Assembly: GCA_026026165.1 (NCBI GenBank)
Contig: JAPEUD010000037.1
Location: 124,001 to 188,000 of the forward strand
DNA from: Sarea resinae
Taxonomy: Eukaryota
Length of the DNA stretch: 64,000 bases
Direction of reading: 5' to 3'
This document shows, in pieces, positions 4,711 to 45,957 of this stretch. Under the pieces are notes generated by a model, which saw only the letters and a list, made by a program, of their open reading frames with translations, ran no database searches and was not told the origin of the DNA. The first letter of the stretch is position 1; each line of letters begins with the position of its first letter. The translations under genes were made by a program, and so were the position numbers.

Positions 4711-7534
4711 CTACAACTCTCCAGCCCCGCTCTCCGCGTCGACTCTCAGTGACGTATCGACATCGACATCGACATGTGAGTCTTTCTCGTCCAAAAAGCT
4801 CAAACCCTCCATAGCCTTACCGCCACACGCTCGTTCCAGCGTCAGGAAGGCGAAGTGGCCCCCAATAACGGGACGAGCGAAGAAGTTCGGGCCGGGAAAG
4901 CCACCGTCACCTTCAGTATTGTAGAGATCCGTGAATGGGCGATCTGGATGACTCTAAATAAGCAAGAGCAGAGAATGAAAGGGATAGTGCATACCGGTAA
5001 CTGTTTCGTTGATCCAAAGAGCCACGCCAGCCAAGATTTCTTCTCTGACTTTCTTGCTCGTAACAGCTGCGGCAAAAAATTCCCAGTCGCTCTTGGTATA
5101 CAAATGCCTGTTGTCGAGAGGAAGCCCATAGCGTTGATTGACAGCGTGGTACCAGTCGCTTTGAACCTTGTAGATGTGATTAGGAATAAAGCTGGTTTCA
5201 GTGCTGTTGCTGGGGTCGCCGTGCTTCAACGGCTTCTGGCCTTCCAAAGTCGATGCGGCGGGACCGTTGTGCGAGGATGGAAGGTGGAAGCAAAGCAGCG
5301 AATCGGCAAAGAGGTTGTAAAGGGTCGTCCAGGAACCATACCAATCGTAAGCTAATTTGGCGTGGGTGCCGTCTCGAGACATGCCGAACTCTTCCCATTT
5401 CTTGATGTAGACTTCGGAGATGTTCTGAAAGAATCGTAAGCCGACGCAAGCCAGCCTCAATGATAAGATGTTACCTTGTAATACTCTACATCTTCCGGTA
5501 TACCAGCAACATCGGCAATTTCACTCATAGCTTTGATACCGATTATGCCTTTGAGAGCAAGGTTTGTCTGCAAAGCCAGCCAGCCAGCAAAGTCATCGGT
5601 CGACACTAGAAGCTGTTAGACTTTCTCATACAAAAAGAAGGGGGGCGTGAACCGACATTGGTTTTGTGGCTCTAATGTAAATTCTACGAGATAGCCTGTC
5701 CACTGTTTCCATAACTTGTAGCTTCTCTGGACCCATTTCTTGGCCTGTTTTTCGCCGTTCGTTTCCCCTCCCCACTTGTTGTCGAGGCCAAAGATGCTAT
5801 CTCGAACCTCAAGGGTACCAAGGGCAAAGGGACTGCCTTCAGCAGCTTCATCAAAGTCCCCACCTCCCTGGCTAGACCATATTGAGCCAGCAGAGCTCTC
5901 AGTTTCGTACCTCAAGGAGTTGACGAGAGCAAGACCCATGATGAGAATATCACCACATTCTTCGACAGGCATGTATTCGTCGTTTCCATCTGCATGGCCG
6001 GTGGCGTTGGGGAAATGATAACCCAGATCGTGCATGGCGTATTTGTTGGGGTACTGGCCACTCAAGATGTGCTCAATCAGTGGTTCGAGAAGGTAAGCTA
6101 GCCATCGAGGATTCGTATAGAGGAAGAATGGGAAAGCCGGGAAAATGACATCGATGGTCTGGAAGTTCCCGTTTGACGATATCTCCTTGAGGAAGAGTAT
6201 GGGATTCTCGGGAGTGCCAGAGAAGCTTGTGGCGCCAATGGTTTGGCGTGCGGAAAGGGCGACGATATCTACGTAGTCATCCGAGCCAGATTTATAGGCA
6301 TCCGCAGCAAGCTGTGCTGAGTAGTTGCCCGCAAGTTTGGTAGCAGTTTCAACATCCAGGTAATGGAACATCAGCAAGGCTTCAGTCGAGAAGAACCAGG
6401 ATGCCCAAAGCGGTCTCATGAATGTCAAACCTCGAGCTGAGGCGAACTGCACGACCGGATCTTGGATATGTGCAATTGTGAATAGGACGCTGTCGCTGGT
6501 CTTTTCACTGGAGTTGAGATGGAATGATTTGGAAAAGGCAAAGACCGGCTCGTCTTCCATGATTCCGCGAAATGAGTTGTCCACCTCGTTTTGGAGCGTA
6601 CCGGTCCTGGAAAAGCGCTGTCTCAAGAGAGCAGAAGTACCAGACTCGTGTCGAACGTCCTTGAAGAGTCAGCACCCCCGATATCTCAGCTTTGATGGCT
6701 TTGTACACTTACCAACGGTGCAGTGAAATGCAATGTCCCCCACTCCGCTTGATCAGCCCATTCCGTCAACAATTGCTCAGTCTCCCTTTTCACCTTCCAG
6801 GTCTTTAATCCTTTCTTGTCGTCCCCAAGAGCTGACTCTGACAACTCCCAGGTAATTCGGTTGTCCCGGTTGCCACTGACCCATTGTCCATTGACGTCGA
6901 TGTATACATCAACGTCAAAGCCTCCGTACACATAAACGCTAATGTAAGACGCAGGGATTGATTGTCTTAAGGTCGATGTTGGGGTGATCGGTGACAAGAA
7001 AGAGAGGACAATCTCGAGTGGCTCGAGTCCGGAGCTTTTCGCCGGGGGAGGAATTCGGTAGGTGAGATTGGTGACGGAAGCATCGTATTTGGCACCAACG
7101 TACGTTGGATAAGATAGATTATAGCTATGCACCGTGAGCTTCTTCATAGGTCGTCAGGTTGGAAACCTATATACCCTTCACTTTTCCCCGGTGGCTGGAG
7201 CGAGTCCTGAGGTCTACCCAACAACGGATAGACCTTTTCTGTTTCTGGGACTGCGGCTAATACGGAGAATCCAATCTAAGTGATTTAATGGGAGTTAGAG
7301 ATGGCCAAGGTTACATAGCAGCGGTCGTAGCTCAAAAGAAAGGGTGGCTACCTCCTGTCCGGTCCAAAACATCGGCCATTTGCTCCACGGCGGCTCTCTG
7401 GCATCATTGAGCCAAGTGCTCAAATACGGATTGCGGACAATCAGTGGAAGCACTGGTGGGGTGAGCGTCGAGGCCTCAACGGTGCTTGCCAGAAGCGCCG
7501 AGGCAGCAACAGCCGCATGTACGAGCCAGCGCAT
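4711..7534 (-). CDS. gtaA: Secreted glutaminase A (GtaA-like), multi-exon
   Basis: Signal peptide then 'PPVLPLIVRNPYLSTW', 'LFLKEISSNGNFQTIDV', 'EYMPVEECG', 'YGLPLDNRHLYTKSDWE'; final exon 'DRPFTDLY...FFARPVIGGHF' ending at TAG 4711-4713. Confidence 0.88.
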
Positions 7535-8265
7535 ATCGGCGATATGATTGATTGAAAAGCTCTATCTCCTCTCTAATTGCAGAGATGGAGTGGTATAGGA
7601 AAGGTGCAAAATATCACGGGAGCACATACGAGTCCCACCTACAGAGTGAGTCGTGACCGGCGGGTATGCGTATGCGTATGCGTACCTGGCTGGGGATTGG
7701 CAGGAACAAGCGGCTACGTAAGGTACCTCGCAATAGGTCGGATTAGGAGCTTTCCCCACACTCGAGCTCCCATTATGGTCAATCCATTACGCCTTGAGAG
7801 GTACGAGCCCAATGGCGGGGCTTACTCGACGAGTAGGTACTGTGACCTTGAAGACACGAAGGTTTACCCGCTAGAGCTGCTGTACGAAGTACACGTTACC
7901 TCGTACTCAGCAGTCGAGGTCCACTCTATCATGCACCGAAGTCTCAGGTACGGAGTACTCGCCCGAACAATTTCTCCATTGAGTCTCACATCTGCTTGGA
8001 ATACTCCTTATACGACAAGAGAAAGACGCAGTAGACATGGGAATACTCCGATACTGTCGAGCACATTAGATGCTACTTAAGGTACCTAGGTAAGTGAAAG
8101 AGTTAGCAGAGCTAATTCAAGTACTAACTTACTCCAGGTACTATGATCAATCGCCCTACGCATTTCTACTCGACAATTTTCGCTCACGCTTTGTTAAAAA
8201 TCTACGTGATCACAGTTCTTGAATGAGAAACTGAGATATGTGGATGAGTATCCCAAAAATTCAGC

Positions 8266-8271
8266 AAAAAA
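8266..8271 (-). terminator. Pol III oligo-T terminator of tRNA-Glu
   Basis: TTTTTT on the minus strand just 3' of the discriminator base. Confidence 0.8.
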
Positions 8272-8275
8272 GATG

Positions 8276-8407
8276 TTCGGATACCGGGAATCGAACCCGG
8301 ATCTGCCCGGAGCTATTGTATGAAAGCGGGCTGGAACTTGTTAGTTATGCGACCGAAGGCGTTGGAGGAGGAAGAAGTACCGATGCTAACCGTTACACCA
8401 TATCCGA
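8276..8407 (-). tRNA. tRNA-Glu(TTC) with two introns: 50-nt GT-AG insertion (8380-8331, between positions 27/28) and 10-nt canonical intron (8320-8311, positions 37/38)
   Basis: Acceptor TCGGATA/TATCCGA, D-arm GTGT-AACGGTTA-GCAT, anticodon stem GCCCG/CGGGC after removing both inserts, loop CT-TTC-A-C, T-arm CCGGG-TTCGATT-CCCGG, T6 run 5 nt downstream. Confidence 0.92.
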
Positions 8408-8437
8408 TTGTTGTTGAGAAATCTGCTCTGATCTTCC

Positions 8438-9700
8438 TTATATATCGTCTTCCTTGAGCTCTCGTCCTTGCGAAAGAAATGAGGATCGCGAGATCCTCCT
8501 TATTGGACTAAGCTCTTCCTTGTCAGTACTACTGCAATACGGTACTCGGACTGGTTCGAGCTCGGCGACGCTTCCCCTCTGAACAATAACGATGCCATTC
8601 GACTCCGGCTCCGCCACCAACTCTGCAATGGCCGCGTAGTCATCTCGTCTGGCTTGATTACCTCTCTAGATCCCGGGTCTTCTATGCTGTCCTTCTCGAT
8701 GCCAAGTCTCTCCTTTAATATTTTGATTGCACCCCTTCTCTAGAGGCTTAGCCCCTGATTCCCCACCTTGCATTTGTTGTTGCTCTTCGGCTTGATGGCT
8801 TGCCTCTTTCCATCCGCATGATCAAATGCGGCATATCACGCTGGGATCCGAATTCTGAATATTTCCTTTCCCCGAAATTCAGATAAGAATGCCTCGAATG
8901 TCGACTTCGTCAGCCCTACGGGCCCCAGTCGGAACAATATTTTCGTTGTTTGCCCAAGTTTGAGACGACACGATCGATTGGTTCCTATTGGCACGACGAT
9001 CTGACACCCGTTCAGCTTCTCCCGCACATACAGGCCGCTCCATCTCACGTACGTGGGTATCCATGATGGCGACACTGACTCCATTCCTTCCGGCTTTAAT
9101 AATGCTCCATTTAACGCCTGCTCCCCCCAACCCTGGCTAGGTCACTATGGTTTTGCATTCACTTCCAGCGAGGCGGTAATTCGCTTGTCGAATTGCCCTA
9201 GCTTTCTCTGAATTGGCCGTAGCCCATTTCCTTACATGTTCCGAGGATAAGCCTGAAGCTTTACCCCCTAAAGACGATGGCCCCTGGGGAAATGTTATTT
9301 GGGCTTCGAATCCTGTAGCCTGACACAGACCCTTCTATCCTTGGGGCTGATCCCATTGCTTTGCTTTGGCTAACTCCCAGTATCGGGCGTTCATATATGG
9401 CGCGTATAGTTCCGCTCCAAGGCAGAGCAAGCCCTCCATAAGGTAAACGAGAGGAGAAGCCGGTATTTCTCTTTCCTTGCTGCTAGTATGTAGTATTCAT
9501 CTTCTCATCAAGCTCAGACAGCTGTTCCCGATCCCTATTTCTACCATCGGACGTCTCGGGACCGGTATCCGGCAAGTCTTACCCGGTGCCTTATAATTCG
9601 AAATATCGTGCATCACAGATCTCGAAATGTCGTGTTAGCTTCATAGTAGACCCTGTTGTGTATATTCATTTATTAATGAAGGGGCGCGCGAACCCCTATA
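8438..9700 (-). pseudogene. Degenerate coding relic, possibly a distant member of the GIY-YIG-associated family found at 24-32 kb
   Basis: Stop-interrupted frames, e.g. 'VYLMEGLLCLGAELY...WDQPQG*KGLCQATGFE...VRKWATANSEKARAIRQ', loosely like 'CLLAEAIYTSWLGA...WRGACTHSPLAE' plus a basic tail. Confidence 0.3.
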
Positions 9701-10251
9701 GCGTCTTTGAATCCAAGATTTGCGGAGCCAAAGATAGCAGTTCTACCTCAGAACAGAGTCTTCCTGCCAGACTTATTCGTTGGCCCTCTTGACGGACATC
9801 CCTAGTGCTTCTACTACTTAGTCTGTCCATTCGTGTATGAAATCTCCCTAGTAGGGGCCAGTGTCTATTTAGTTGAGCGGCAATCGTCTTTTCAAATACT
9901 TAGAGCATCCCAGGCATCGATATCGGTAGATAGACAGCAATCGGTATTTTCAAGCATCAGGCCGGTGCTGAATCGTTGTGTTTTGGTAATTCGATCTAGT
10001 CCGTCGTACACTGTCTCTACGGTGTCTAAATTTAGAAGCCAGGGTGATGGGAAGGGTTGGTCACGAGACAATAGAAGAGAGGGCACATGCCGGGTTATCA
10101 ATATGATTGTTTGAAATATTTTAAACACAATGGCTATCGCTAAAATGCTATGAAGAATCGCTCAATATGTGCCTTCAGATACCTTCCAGGTGTACTGCTC
10201 GATTTCCCCCTGCCAAGTCCAGGAAAAGACATATCCACAGAACAGCAAGAT

Positions 10252-12239
10252 TTATACAGCACCAGCGACATCTGCATCATTTTCCCATCCGTCCCAACTA
10301 GGCCCGTCAAAGCCATTGGGCCGGCTACTTCTTGAAAATCCCACGTCAAAGCCCTCGATGCTGACGGGCGATCGGACGTATTTGAGCCTCGCATCAAAAC
10401 CCCGACTGTAGCACTCGTGAAAGACTTTTTCGCCAAAGAGTTCGGGATGTGCACGCTTCATGCTATTCAAGGCGCGCTTGCCGACCTCGTCGACACTGTC
10501 GTTGTGACGAAGACCAAAGAAAGAGGCGTCGTGTTCCGAGCGCTGTTGTTCTTGGATGGATGGCGGGTAGAGGCCAAGTTGGAGGAGGTAGATGTCGTAT
10601 TGGGAGAGGGAGACTTTTCCGTAGTAGGAGCCGCCGTATTTTGCTCGGCGGAAGAGACCTGTCAAGGCAGCAATGGCGCCCATGCAGCCGGTGCTTCATG
10701 CAGATATGAGCATCGCAGCTTTTGATTTCAAGAATAAAGGAGCCTTACCCATAGTCACTCATAGGGAAGGGAGGCACAACCGGCTCGTTGAGCCCCATGA
10801 ATTTCCCTTGCGCCCAAGCTACCCCTGTTACGCAATCGGCAATCTGTTGCCAGCCAGGTCGTCCAGCCCACTCTCCCACATGCCCAAAGCAGTCCTCGGC
10901 GACATAGACTATGCCTTTACCTCTGTGCTTGGTAAGCTCGATGATCTGCTGGGGGCCGTATCCCAGGCGTTCCAGAGCGCCCGGCCGATAACCATCGAGA
11001 ATGACGTCGGTTTCTTGTAATAGGCCCTCGAACACTTTACGGTCGGCGGGATCCTTGAGATTGAGGTCTGTGGTGTGCTTGCCGATATTTCTAGGAGATG
11101 GTTAGCATTATAATGCCGACTCGCGCCTTTGTGCTTGAACGGTTGGAGATACTAATGGATGCAAGGAGACAATTTGATCTTATTTTGATGTGCTTTGGAA
11201 TCACTCACCCATCGACTTGAAAGAATGGGACGTCACTTAGATTCGGTGACGTAATTTTCATCACGTCGGCACCATATTCTGCCAGAGTGCGGCCGATAGC
11301 TGGACCGGCTATGATCCTACATAACTCCAGGACCTTGATACCCGCTAGGATCTCTGGTTTTGAGCTTGGATGTGTTGCATTTGGAAAGGGAGCCGGAGGG
11401 GAGGAAGTTTCCAAGTCGTCGACCCTCCATGGTGGCTCTCGTATCAAAGCTTGCCCCTGACAGATGTCAACATCTAATTCTGCTCGATCGTAGCATCTGA
11501 CCCACATGATTCGTCTCCTGGAATTGTTCCCACGTTAGACATGTCACACCGGCCTGTCTTCTCTCAGCATTCATCTTCTCTAGCTCCCCCGCCGAAAATT
11601 GCTTGACATGCTTCTCTATGAGCTTGATGCATTCATGATAGTCGGTCATGTCAGGTCGATGCCCCTCGAGCCCGACCATGTTCAGGGCTGTAGTAGCTTC
11701 GAGCGATCCATGAAGATGGAAGAATTCGCCGGGATTTCTCGTCTCGTACAGATTTGCCGATAGTCTTCGATACAGTATGGATTGTGCTTTTAACAAATCG
11801 GTATCTACTCAGGTCAGCAATCTTGCCAACAACGCCCAATACCAGTGTGTAGAGAACCTTTTAATAACACTTTGACCTCGGGGTCCGCTTTCCCTAGGCC
11901 ATTGAGAGTGCTAACATATGCAGAAAACAAAAATACAGTTGCCAATTCCGCATCCACGGTGATCCTTCTCGGCTTGACCTGATACCTTAGATCTGCAATG
12001 GCTGCGGCGGCACATGCTTCTAGCGATTTCAGAGCCACGGCCGCTTCTGTCTCCTTGAAGGGACATGGGAGGTAGACCTTGCTGTTGGCGTTGGCGGACG
12101 AGAAGCTCAGCTGCGCAACCTGACTCCGAATTTCCTGGGGTATCTGATCCCCCGCCAATCGCAATGCCTGGTCGATGGCCTGCCGGGCCCCGTCCAGGAC
12201 CGAATAATTGCTCGTTTCATCCGGGGTTACAATGGTCAT
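10252..12239 (-). CDS. CoA-transferase family III (CaiB/BaiF) protein, multi-exon
   Basis: 'GIKVLELCRIIAGPAIGRTLAEYGADV', 'DVILDGYRPGALERLGYG', 'RPGWQQIADCVTG', 'PPFPMSDYG'; ORF pieces separated by GT-AG introns. Confidence 0.9.
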
Positions 12240-44700: not shown

Positions 44701-45957
44701 CGTGTTTTCCAAGCAATCCGCTGTGAACGGAGAAGCAGAAGTCCCTGTGTCAAATGGTTCGCCAGCTACCAATGGTCACTCAAACGGCGGCAAGAAGAAG
44801 AAGAAGAGCGCCGAGCGTAACTCTCCGGCCTCCTCTGTTGCTTCTGGATCTTTAAATTCCCCGGTCACATTTAGTCCTGAGGATATTCTGAACATCGTCC
44901 CGCTTATCAAGGACGCTGCCCCACGGGTAAGTGGTTGATTCATAAAGCTTGTATGCTGTCATCGTCTAATGTTGTCCAGAGTACTCTCGCAGAAGAAGCC
45001 CTCGAAGCGGGCCGCATCTCTATTGCTCAAAACCAGAAGGAGCTAGGTCAGGAATTGCTGCTCGAATCGCTGTCGCTACACGAGCAGATCTATGGAATCT
45101 TCCATCCGGATGTCGCTAGAGTTTACTATCAACTCTCCATGCTGTATTACGGCTTGGATGAGAAGAATGCGGCCGTAGAGCTGGCTCGGAAGGCTGTCAT
45201 TGTCTCCGAGAGAACTCTGGGACTGGACTCGTCGGAGACTGTTCTTAGCTATTTGAACCTCGGATTGTTTGAACATGCTAATGGCAACACTAAGTCTGCC
45301 TTGGCATATGTCCGACATGCTCTAGAGCTCTGGAAGGTGATCTATGGTATCAAGCATCCAGACTCGATTACGACTATCAACAACGCAGCCGTCATGTTGC
45401 AGCACCTGAAGCAATACCATGAATCGCGCTTGTGGTTCGAGGCCTCGCTGTCTATCAGCGAAGAGGTTTCTGGAAAGCAATCTGTTAACACAGCGACACT
45501 CTTGTTCCAATTAGCCCAGGCGTTAGCACTTGACCAAGACTCCAAAGGAGCAGTCAATCGGATGCGCGAGGCGTATAACATCTTCCTAGCCGAGCTTGGT
45601 GCAGAAGACAGAAACACGAAAGAAGCTGAAAGCTGGCTTGAACAGCTTACACAGAACGCCGTGTCGATCGCGAAACATGCCAAAGACCTTCAGGCTAGAA
45701 GACTTCGCCGCGTGAATGTCACTCCTCGTGTGACACTAGGAACACGGCCCCAGCCTCAAGTCGGCCAATCGGCGTCAGATGCGGCCAATGGCACCGACTC
45801 CCGAAGTGGTATCGATCTAGATTCGCGGAGCATTGACGAACTTATGAGGTTTATCGAAGGAGGCGGGGATACGACGAAAAGATCGTCACAAAAGAAGCGA
45901 CCTGGGCGGAGTAACCCCAAGCGCAGGGGAGGTGGAGCAGTCGGCGCAACAGCATAA
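41731..45957 (+). CDS. CLU1: Clustered mitochondria protein (Clu1/Tif31), multi-exon
   Basis: 'SPWNPPPYHLRQRGHLLYL', 'RDWNEEFQSTRELP', 'GLLGTDGRKYVLDLYR', 'LHKRGINIRYLG', C-terminal TPR repeats. Confidence 0.95.

Follow-up and report, generated by a model that had tools for sequence, protein, structure and literature searches.

Can a nuclear transfer RNA (tRNA) depend on both of the known systems of RNA splicing, the spliceosome and the protein enzymes that act on tRNA? The question is raised by a tRNA-Glu(UUC) gene in a 64-kb stretch of DNA from the fungus Sarea resinae (the whole of this stretch is called the window below, and positions are counted from its first letter). Direct reading of the letters places the gene on the minus strand at 8276-8407, as a unit of 132 nucleotides (nt) in three pieces, which are divided by a 50-nt insert between tRNA nucleotides 27 and 28 and by an ordinary 10-nt intron at the canonical position 37/38. 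Its sequence suggests a nuclear tRNA that would need both systems, the spliceosome for the 50-nt insert as a GT-AG intron and the tRNA endonuclease with a ligase for the 10-nt intron, and we give this reading slightly less than an even chance.

The gene is invisible to the usual searches as long as the insert is in place. Default ARAGORN reports no tRNA anywhere in the window, and Rfam at its gathering thresholds has no match there. With introns allowed, the one call that ARAGORN returns is a poor "tRNA-Ile(aat)", whose intron would measure 58 nt and whose anticodon stem has two positions that do not pair; a single long intron in another tRNA was rejected on account of this bad stem. When exactly 8331-8380 is deleted in the script, the same program gives a clean tRNA-Glu(ttc) with a 10-nt intron and the 5-bp anticodon stem GCCCG/CGGGC. 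A permissive Rfam threshold over 7600-10250 yields a tRNA match that stays below threshold (21.2 bits vs. a cut-off of 29, E 0.36) and takes part of the insert as a false acceptor strand, besides chance matches to long non-coding RNA (lncRNA) and microRNA families. The insert does hold TCGCATA (8346-8352), which equals the acceptor 5' strand of the gene, TCGGATA, at 6 of 7 nt, and no wider similarity suggests a duplication.

The unit and its flanking elements are laid out as follows.

8438..8444, minus strand: TATATAA, a TATA-like element at -37 to -31 relative to tRNA nucleotide 1 (direct reading).

8381..8407, minus strand: tRNA-Glu exon 1, nucleotides 1-27, comprising the 5' strand of the acceptor stem, the D arm (A-box region included), nucleotide 26 and G27 of the anticodon stem (reading and ARAGORN).

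8331..8380, minus strand: 50-nt insert of putative spliceosomal type between nucleotides 27 and 28 (reading, folding, chance and bulge-helix-bulge tests, intron model).

Parts of the insert, minus strand: predicted donor GTACTT at 8380-8375, pyrimidine run at 8377-8364, AACTAAC at 8346-8340 with the predicted branch A at 8341, and CAG at 8333-8331 (reading).

8321..8330, minus strand: 10-nt micro-exon, nucleotides 28-37, which completes the 5' strand of the anticodon stem and extends through the loop to A37; it includes the anticodon TTC, 8324-8322 (reading and ARAGORN).

8311..8320, minus strand: ordinary 10-nt tRNA intron at the canonical 37/38 position (ARAGORN after removal of the insert in the script, and reading).

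8276..8310, minus strand: tRNA-Glu exon 3, nucleotides 38-73, with the anticodon-stem 3' strand, a 4-nt variable loop, the T arm, the acceptor 3' strand and the discriminator A (reading and ARAGORN).

8287-8297, minus strand: B box inside the T arm of exon 3 (pattern search).

8266..8271, minus strand: T6 run, the predicted terminator for RNA polymerase III (Pol III), 4 nt (CATC) past the discriminator (reading).

The insert starts with GT and ends with CAG, and it carries 14 pyrimidines in a row at its positions 4-17 and AACTAAC at its positions 35-41, so that 9 nt follow the motif and the branch A lies 10 nt from the insert end. An earlier note on this DNA, made from the letters, had described a 50-nt insert at 8331..8380 between positions 27 and 28 of a minus-strand tRNA-Glu, with a GT donor, a pyrimidine tract, an ACTAAC ending 9 nt before its end and a CAG; our reading agrees with each of these, and the deletion run with ARAGORN agrees with the placement. 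Removal in the script followed by ARAGORN also upholds its claim that excision restores the GCCCG/CGGGC stem of 5 bp, and the run of four T that it found lacking from the insert is indeed lacking, the longest T run there being 2. The other stems, the boxes and the terminator, which it had called intact, are so (perfect stems, A-box region, B box, T6). The boundary is ambiguous by one G, in that G|GT...CAG|C and |GGT...CA|GC give the same product, and only the first of these registers has GT-AG.

Once both inserts are removed, all four stems are perfect and the hallmarks of a tRNA-Glu are seen (U11-A24, U13-G22 and the 4-nt variable loop). In the 10-nt intron, C32 could pair with the G three nt before its 3' end, and such pairing is usual for canonical tRNA introns. 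The B box, T6 and the upstream TATA-like element are all present, no other defect is seen in the gene, and the rest of it has the look of a functional Pol III unit. Upstream TATA boxes serve the Pol III genes of fission yeast. For U6, such use of an upstream TATA is stated in PMC5855946. The TATA-like element would look identical as a promoter for RNA polymerase II (Pol II). The B-box pattern occurs twice in the window, at the tRNA-Glu gene and within an open reading frame (ORF) at 45434; since this other match sits inside an ORF, the tRNA-Glu gene is the only tRNA gene in the window.

How intron-like the insert is depends on what an intron of this genome looks like. Our reference consists of the ten introns of the two flanking genes, which are fixed by 100%-identical spliced database proteins, P0056 (glutaminase A, 830 amino acids) and P0176 (family III CoA-transferase, 570 amino acids); the proteins were mapped back to the window, so the intron set is unselected, and the introns are located at 4944-7351 and 10694-11857. 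Four of the junctions, which are those of three of the non-consensus donors and of GtaA intron 2, were read in alignments with seven homologues each (61/62, 96/97 and 610/611 in P0056, 127/128 in P0176), and each is gap-free in 7 of the 8 sequences. The exceptions are P0075, in which nothing corresponds to glutaminase exon 2, and P0248, with a gap of 9 residues after the LLK at the close of CoA-transferase exon 1; both are probably gene-model errors at non-consensus splice sites in their own genomes.

The ten reference donors are GTAGCC, GTATAT, GTAAGT, GTCGGT, GTAACA, GTATGC, GTTCTC, GTGGGT, GTGAGT and GTAAGG, with G at +5 in six and without it in GTAGCC, GTATAT, GTAACA and GTTCTC. Sarea resinae thus uses loose 5' splice sites, which an intron search based on a consensus would miss. 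The reference introns are 49-118 nt long with a median of 52 nt, next to 50 nt for the insert, and in their branch motif, CTNAY (or TTGAC), the A precedes the 3' end by 9-19 nt, and by 9-12 nt in seven of the ten. The score of the insert donor, tcg|GTACTT, is 4.38 bits, as compared to leave-one-out scores of -1.4 to 5.9 for the ten reference introns, and the insert has G at -1 as do 8 of the 10. The U2-type GT-AG features of the insert (donor context, branch distance of -10, CAG acceptor and length) therefore all fall within the range of the genome, and a likeness in size and layout to the mRNA introns of the window, proposed before, holds against these ten.

A first set of 20 introns, gathered with a consensus regular expression and by eye, gave another picture: all 20 had G at +5, the insert donor scored -0.09 bits, and 31% of GT sites were as good. 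This result was discarded because of the selection bias that the mapped spliced proteins revealed. On the evidence of its signals, we consider it quite probable that the insert is a spliceosomal-type intron by sequence and origin.

It is also important to ask how readily such a resemblance comes about by chance. A strict test required GT, a CTAAC whose A falls 6-30 nt before the end, and AG; 3 of the 127,902 windows of 50 nt on both strands of the 64 kb pass it, the insert itself and part of a real intron among them, where block shuffles give a mean of 10.65 strict passes. Under a model of donor, branch and acceptor built on the ten introns, 30 of the 127,902 windows equal or exceed the score of the insert. 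A 50-nt insertion of random sequence would be this intron-like about 1-2 times in 10,000, a figure that is post hoc, comes after a scan of very many windows and is not proof.

A living gene would have to be served by both splicing systems, and the pathway that we propose for it has three steps. Pol III would transcribe the whole 132-nt unit, with nothing in either insert to stop it, because neither has more than two T in a row (and so no run of four or more). The nuclear spliceosome would then remove the 50-nt insert at 27/28 as a lariat by way of the GT, the AACTAAC branch site and the CAG, which would rejoin G27 to C28 and complete the anticodon stem. The 10-nt intron at 37/38 would finally be removed by the usual tRNA endonuclease and ligase. 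We infer the Pol III transcription and the spliceosomal splicing, and likewise the origin of the insert, which we conjecture to be intron transposition or reverse splicing into an abundant RNA. As G27-C43 and C28-G42 are adjacent base pairs, the two splice sites are kept next to each other by the tRNA fold, which may help splicing. That this tRNA-Glu(UUC) gene carries two introns of different kinds and yields a working tRNA by the full pathway is, as judged from its sequence, only just short of an even bet. The intact tRNA body together with all the splice signals favors function, or else a very recent insertion, and the estimate is held down because there is no precedent.

Several observations weigh against this pathway. 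The summed model score of the insert, 12.5 bits, is below those of all ten training introns (13.7-21.8 bits, not leave-one-out), mainly because AA rather than TG or GC precedes the CTAAC, and of the 6,682 GT sites in the window, 12.8% match or surpass the insert donor in score. The unconstrained fold of the precursor, at -33.5 kcal/mol, beats the cloverleaf-constrained fold at -22.2 kcal/mol; this lowest-energy fold pairs the D-arm region with the branch-site region of the insert, and the z-score of the whole precursor is -0.55. An AG at insert positions 43-44 lies 3-4 nt past the branch A, and its use would give a defective tRNA. The case is one locus in one assembly, which is labelled a metagenome-assembled genome (MAG). 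From the literature, tRNA splicing proceeds without the spliceosome according to the portion of the review PMC13149111 used here, and a eukaryotic tRNA gene copy that alone carries an odd insertion is regarded as a pseudogene in that of PMC4090602.

With regard to the fold, 8381-8391, which covers the 3' side of the D arm through to the last letters of exon 1, is complementary to 8340-8356 in the branch-site region (GUUAG vs. CUAAC, with neighbors). This pairing could be chance, or it could have an effect on access to the branch site.

The explanation that survives best beside the two-system pathway is a recently disabled copy, to which we attach a substantial probability that falls clearly below one half. 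Here the 50-nt DNA would have landed in one of several tRNA-Glu(UUC) genes, whose transcripts would stay unspliced and be degraded while the other copies supply the tRNA; this DNA could be a spliceosomal-type intron that had transposed or, with less likelihood, an unrelated sequence with a chance resemblance to such an intron. This would agree with the way insertions in one of many synonymous eukaryotic tRNA genes are regarded, namely as pseudogenes (PMC4090602, in the part drawn on), with the lack of any known action of the spliceosome on pre-tRNA in the literature searched and in the sections of PMC13149111 at hand, with the rejection of the gene by standard tRNA finders and with a best precursor fold that is not the cloverleaf. 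Over some 250,000 scanned windows, moreover, a 2-in-10,000 resemblance can arise by chance occasionally. Against it stands the state of the gene: none of the decay of a tRNA pseudogene (stem mismatches, lost boxes or a lost terminator) is seen, and stems, boxes, terminator and both sets of splice signals are intact, so a dead copy would have to be very young. The chance version requires in addition a coincidence of 1-2 in 10,000. There is also little that would point to a DNA transposon. No second copy of the insert occurs in the window, where the best other match is 11 nt (the window being too small a share of the genome to exclude an introner family), and the ends of the insert have no terminal repeats, inverted ones included, and no target duplication beyond the one ambiguous G. 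From 64 kb of DNA, our estimate for function is slightly under one half, and that for a very young dead copy is lower but still sizeable.

A different account would make the insert the intron of a non-coding minus-strand Pol II transcript, either a long 5' leader of the glutaminase gene or a lncRNA, that crosses the tRNA gene or its relic. It draws on a second near-consensus intron-like stretch of 47 nt on the same strand at 8086-8132, upstream of the glutaminase start, and on the TATA-like element at -37 to -31, which would suit Pol II too. We find it improbable. An overlapping transcript had been named before as an alternative, and its protein-coding form fails: no frame longer than 101 amino acids results from removing the insert, the neighboring intron-like stretch or both (the longest frames are 101 amino acids unspliced and 87 amino acids across the junction), which led us to reject an intron of an overlapping protein-coding gene. 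Codon-usage scores are weak over 7600-10150, and 7 of the 8 ORFs there have no Pfam match while the eighth falls below the cut-off, so that coding potential is weak and no Pfam family reaches the cut-off. As to the non-coding form, 8086-8137 resembles an intron just as much when read on the plus strand, a leader longer than 700 nt would presumably be unusual, and the restoration of a perfect tRNA by excision is left unexplained.

Less probable again, and in our judgment quite unlikely, is that the insert is cut out by a protein enzyme (the tRNA endonuclease at a non-canonical site, as in nucleomorphs and Cyanidioschyzon) or is retained as an expansion of the tRNA. For eukaryotes, tRNA introns at places other than 37/38, and tRNA genes that hold two or three introns, have been described from nucleomorphs and C. 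merolae, in some cases with confirmation by reverse-transcription PCR (PMC4090602, in the part consulted); in that same part, however, these introns are 3-24 nt long or dependent on a bulge-helix-bulge (BHB) motif. Excision by the Sen endonuclease was a named alternative, for which the BHB search came out negative in all three registers tested. The GT-AG register forms 0 of 4 central pairs, the best register (shifted by one G) forms 3 of 4 central and 1 of 4 outer pairs, and a BHB-dependent intron was accordingly rejected. Nor does the 50-nt insert lie at the 37/38 position of Sen-type introns, as it sits at 27/28; it is the separate 10-nt intron that has this position. The insert is also unstructured, with a minimum free energy of -1.1 kcal/mol and a z-score of +0.8 (158 of 200 shuffles fold at least as well), so it lacks the stable structure expected of a functional module, and we rejected a folded module on this ground. 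Both cutting by a protein enzyme and retention would leave the layout of GT, branch site and AG as an unexplained coincidence. An assembly or sequencing artefact is hardly credible even for an assembly that a source labels a MAG, as a mis-join would not add exactly 50 nt with intron signals and leave the tRNA parts in register, and the flanking genes are collinear with their homologues.

The spliceosomal reading of the tRNA that the earlier note put forward is thus strengthened in one part and amended in another: the sequence is intron-like, no BHB is found and no coding frame overlaps, while the canonical 10-nt intron at 8311-8320 had been overlooked.

Spliceosomal introns in hosts other than mRNA are a known kind. 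The U6 intron of S. pombe has experimental confirmation. Spliceosomal introns are recorded in the fungal genes for U6 (a Pol III transcript, with up to four per gene), for the U1, U2 and U5 small nuclear RNAs (snRNAs) and for ribosomal RNA (rRNA), and those of U6 have canonical signals, include many species-specific insertions and for the most part have no experimental validation (PMC5855946, which in the part used here summarizes the S. pombe work of Tani and Ohshima 1989, 1991 and the survey of Canzler et al. 2016). RNA abundance, structure and nearness to the active site are given there as possible determinants of U6-type introns, and tRNA is not on the list in that part of the source.

The Sarea resinae gene shares several features with the U6 cases. 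Both have a small non-coding host of Pol III architecture with internal promoter elements and a short intron, putative in Sarea, with canonical 5' site, branch and 3' site that is otherwise unconserved; the thought origin in U6 is reverse splicing, and many of the U6 cases, too, are known from sequence only (PMC5855946, same part). The architecture of the U6 type is seen here in the B box at 8287-8297, T6 at 8266-8271, the TATA-like element at 8438-8444 and the splice signals in the insert. The difference lies in the host, which here is a tRNA whose gene also carries a protein-spliced intron. As the host RNA is tRNA-Glu(UUC) and not a spliceosomal snRNA, the gene would be U6-like in its working and stand outside the U6 class. 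To our knowledge, tRNA has no known contact with the catalytic center of the spliceosome. Spliceosomal GT-AG introns with branch sites are reportedly found in the nuclear rRNA genes of ascomycetes (Pezizomycotina), a description ascribed to Bhattacharya et al. 2000. Both PMC5855946 and PMC6652019 cite that work. These rRNA introns share with the present case a non-mRNA host, which here too is probably not made by Pol II, and a place in the Pezizomycotina; the host there, in contrast, is a Pol I rRNA and here a Pol III tRNA.

Among tRNA genes the comparison is with two groups. Eukaryotic tRNA introns outside 37/38 appear, in the portion of PMC4090602 drawn on, only in nucleomorphs (Guillardia theta) and in Cyanidioschyzon merolae. 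They resemble the Sarea resinae case in their place in the anticodon stem, away from 37/38, and in that the gene has a canonical intron as well, and differ from it in being 3-24 nt long or reliant on a BHB, whereas the Sarea insert is 50 nt long, has no BHB and has spliceosomal signals. The insertions in individual copies of tRNA genes that are treated as pseudogenes in that portion of PMC4090602 likewise occupy a non-canonical place in a nuclear tRNA gene that standard finders refuse; the Sarea insert differs in its full set of splice signals and in a gene without other decay. A full-text literature search, with subscription journals largely outside its reach, found no report of a spliceosomal intron in a tRNA gene. 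The spliceosome, it is argued, may transpose short fungal and algal introners (PMC11146597, in the part consulted). If the insert is real, what is known is the kind, spliceosomal introns in U6, other snRNA and rRNA genes, and what is new is the tRNA host.

The tRNA gene lies in approximately 2.7 kb of non-coding DNA between the genes for glutaminase A and the family III CoA-transferase (7534 to 10252). The glutaminase A gene occupies 7534-4714 of the minus strand (Pfam GtaA_6_Hairpin, 3.1e-54), the CoA-transferase gene (Pfam, 2.1e-19) is on the other side of the tRNA, and both are collinear with their homologues. The locus tags of these two genes differ by two, which means that exactly one feature is annotated in the interval that bears the tRNA. 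Sarea resinae belongs to the class Sareomycetes, and the window carries typical genes of Pezizomycotina; for an ORF of 1014 amino acids, the nearest named relatives are lichen-forming and allied ascomycetes at 29-37% identity.

In the non-coding DNA at 8086-8137, 143 nt past the tRNA gene and ahead of the start codon of the glutaminase gene (7534), a stretch of 47-48 nt reads as a near-consensus intron on both strands, as GTAAGT...GCTAAC...CTAG on the minus strand (8132-8086) and as GTAAGT...ACTAAC...CCAG on the plus strand (8090-8137). To judge by these signals, it may mark an unannotated non-coding Pol II transcript or an intron in a 5' leader.

A metagenome scan for tRNA-Glu(UUC) genes in which the D arm and the anticodon loop had to be parted by an insert of 33-63 nt gave 0 matches. 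With the 25-nt 5' half as the query (position 3 written as S), the scan returned 69 loci, all with C at position 3 and all in non-fungal tRNA arrays of water metagenomes; none of the 69 has an insert at 27/28, and the G3 form of the window is in none of them. In the prokaryote genome collection, the exact 5' half and then the exact 3' part found 0 and 0 matches. Most of the 69 loci (63 of L001-L069) hold 2-10 tRNA calls within 1.6 kb. By eye, seven of them (L008, L013, L029, L041, L044, L061 and L066) have 8-24 extra nt past the anticodon loop, and ARAGORN calls introns in the Glu genes of three (L013, L043 and L066). These loci look like phage or giant-virus tRNA clusters, some with short inserts in the anticodon loop.

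Textbooks and reviews keep the two systems apart, with the spliceosome assigned to Pol II transcripts (and a few snRNA and rRNA cases) and protein enzymes assigned to tRNA. If the insert is what its signals suggest and the gene works, this would be the first tRNA substrate of the spliceosome and would directly record that the spliceosome had moved an intron into an RNA that is abundant and structured. It would mean that the spliceosome can handle a highly structured Pol III transcript that bears no cap and has exons of 27 and 10 nt, which would also be a very small natural substrate for studies of exon definition and of spliceosome access, and that a class of genes escapes tRNA gene finders. 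Should the gene be a young dead copy instead, it would still give a dated picture of how a spliceosomal-type intron arrives in a gene for an RNA other than mRNA. A working gene, for its part, would imply that intron gain can strike any abundant RNA, which bears on the reverse-splicing model of how introns spread.

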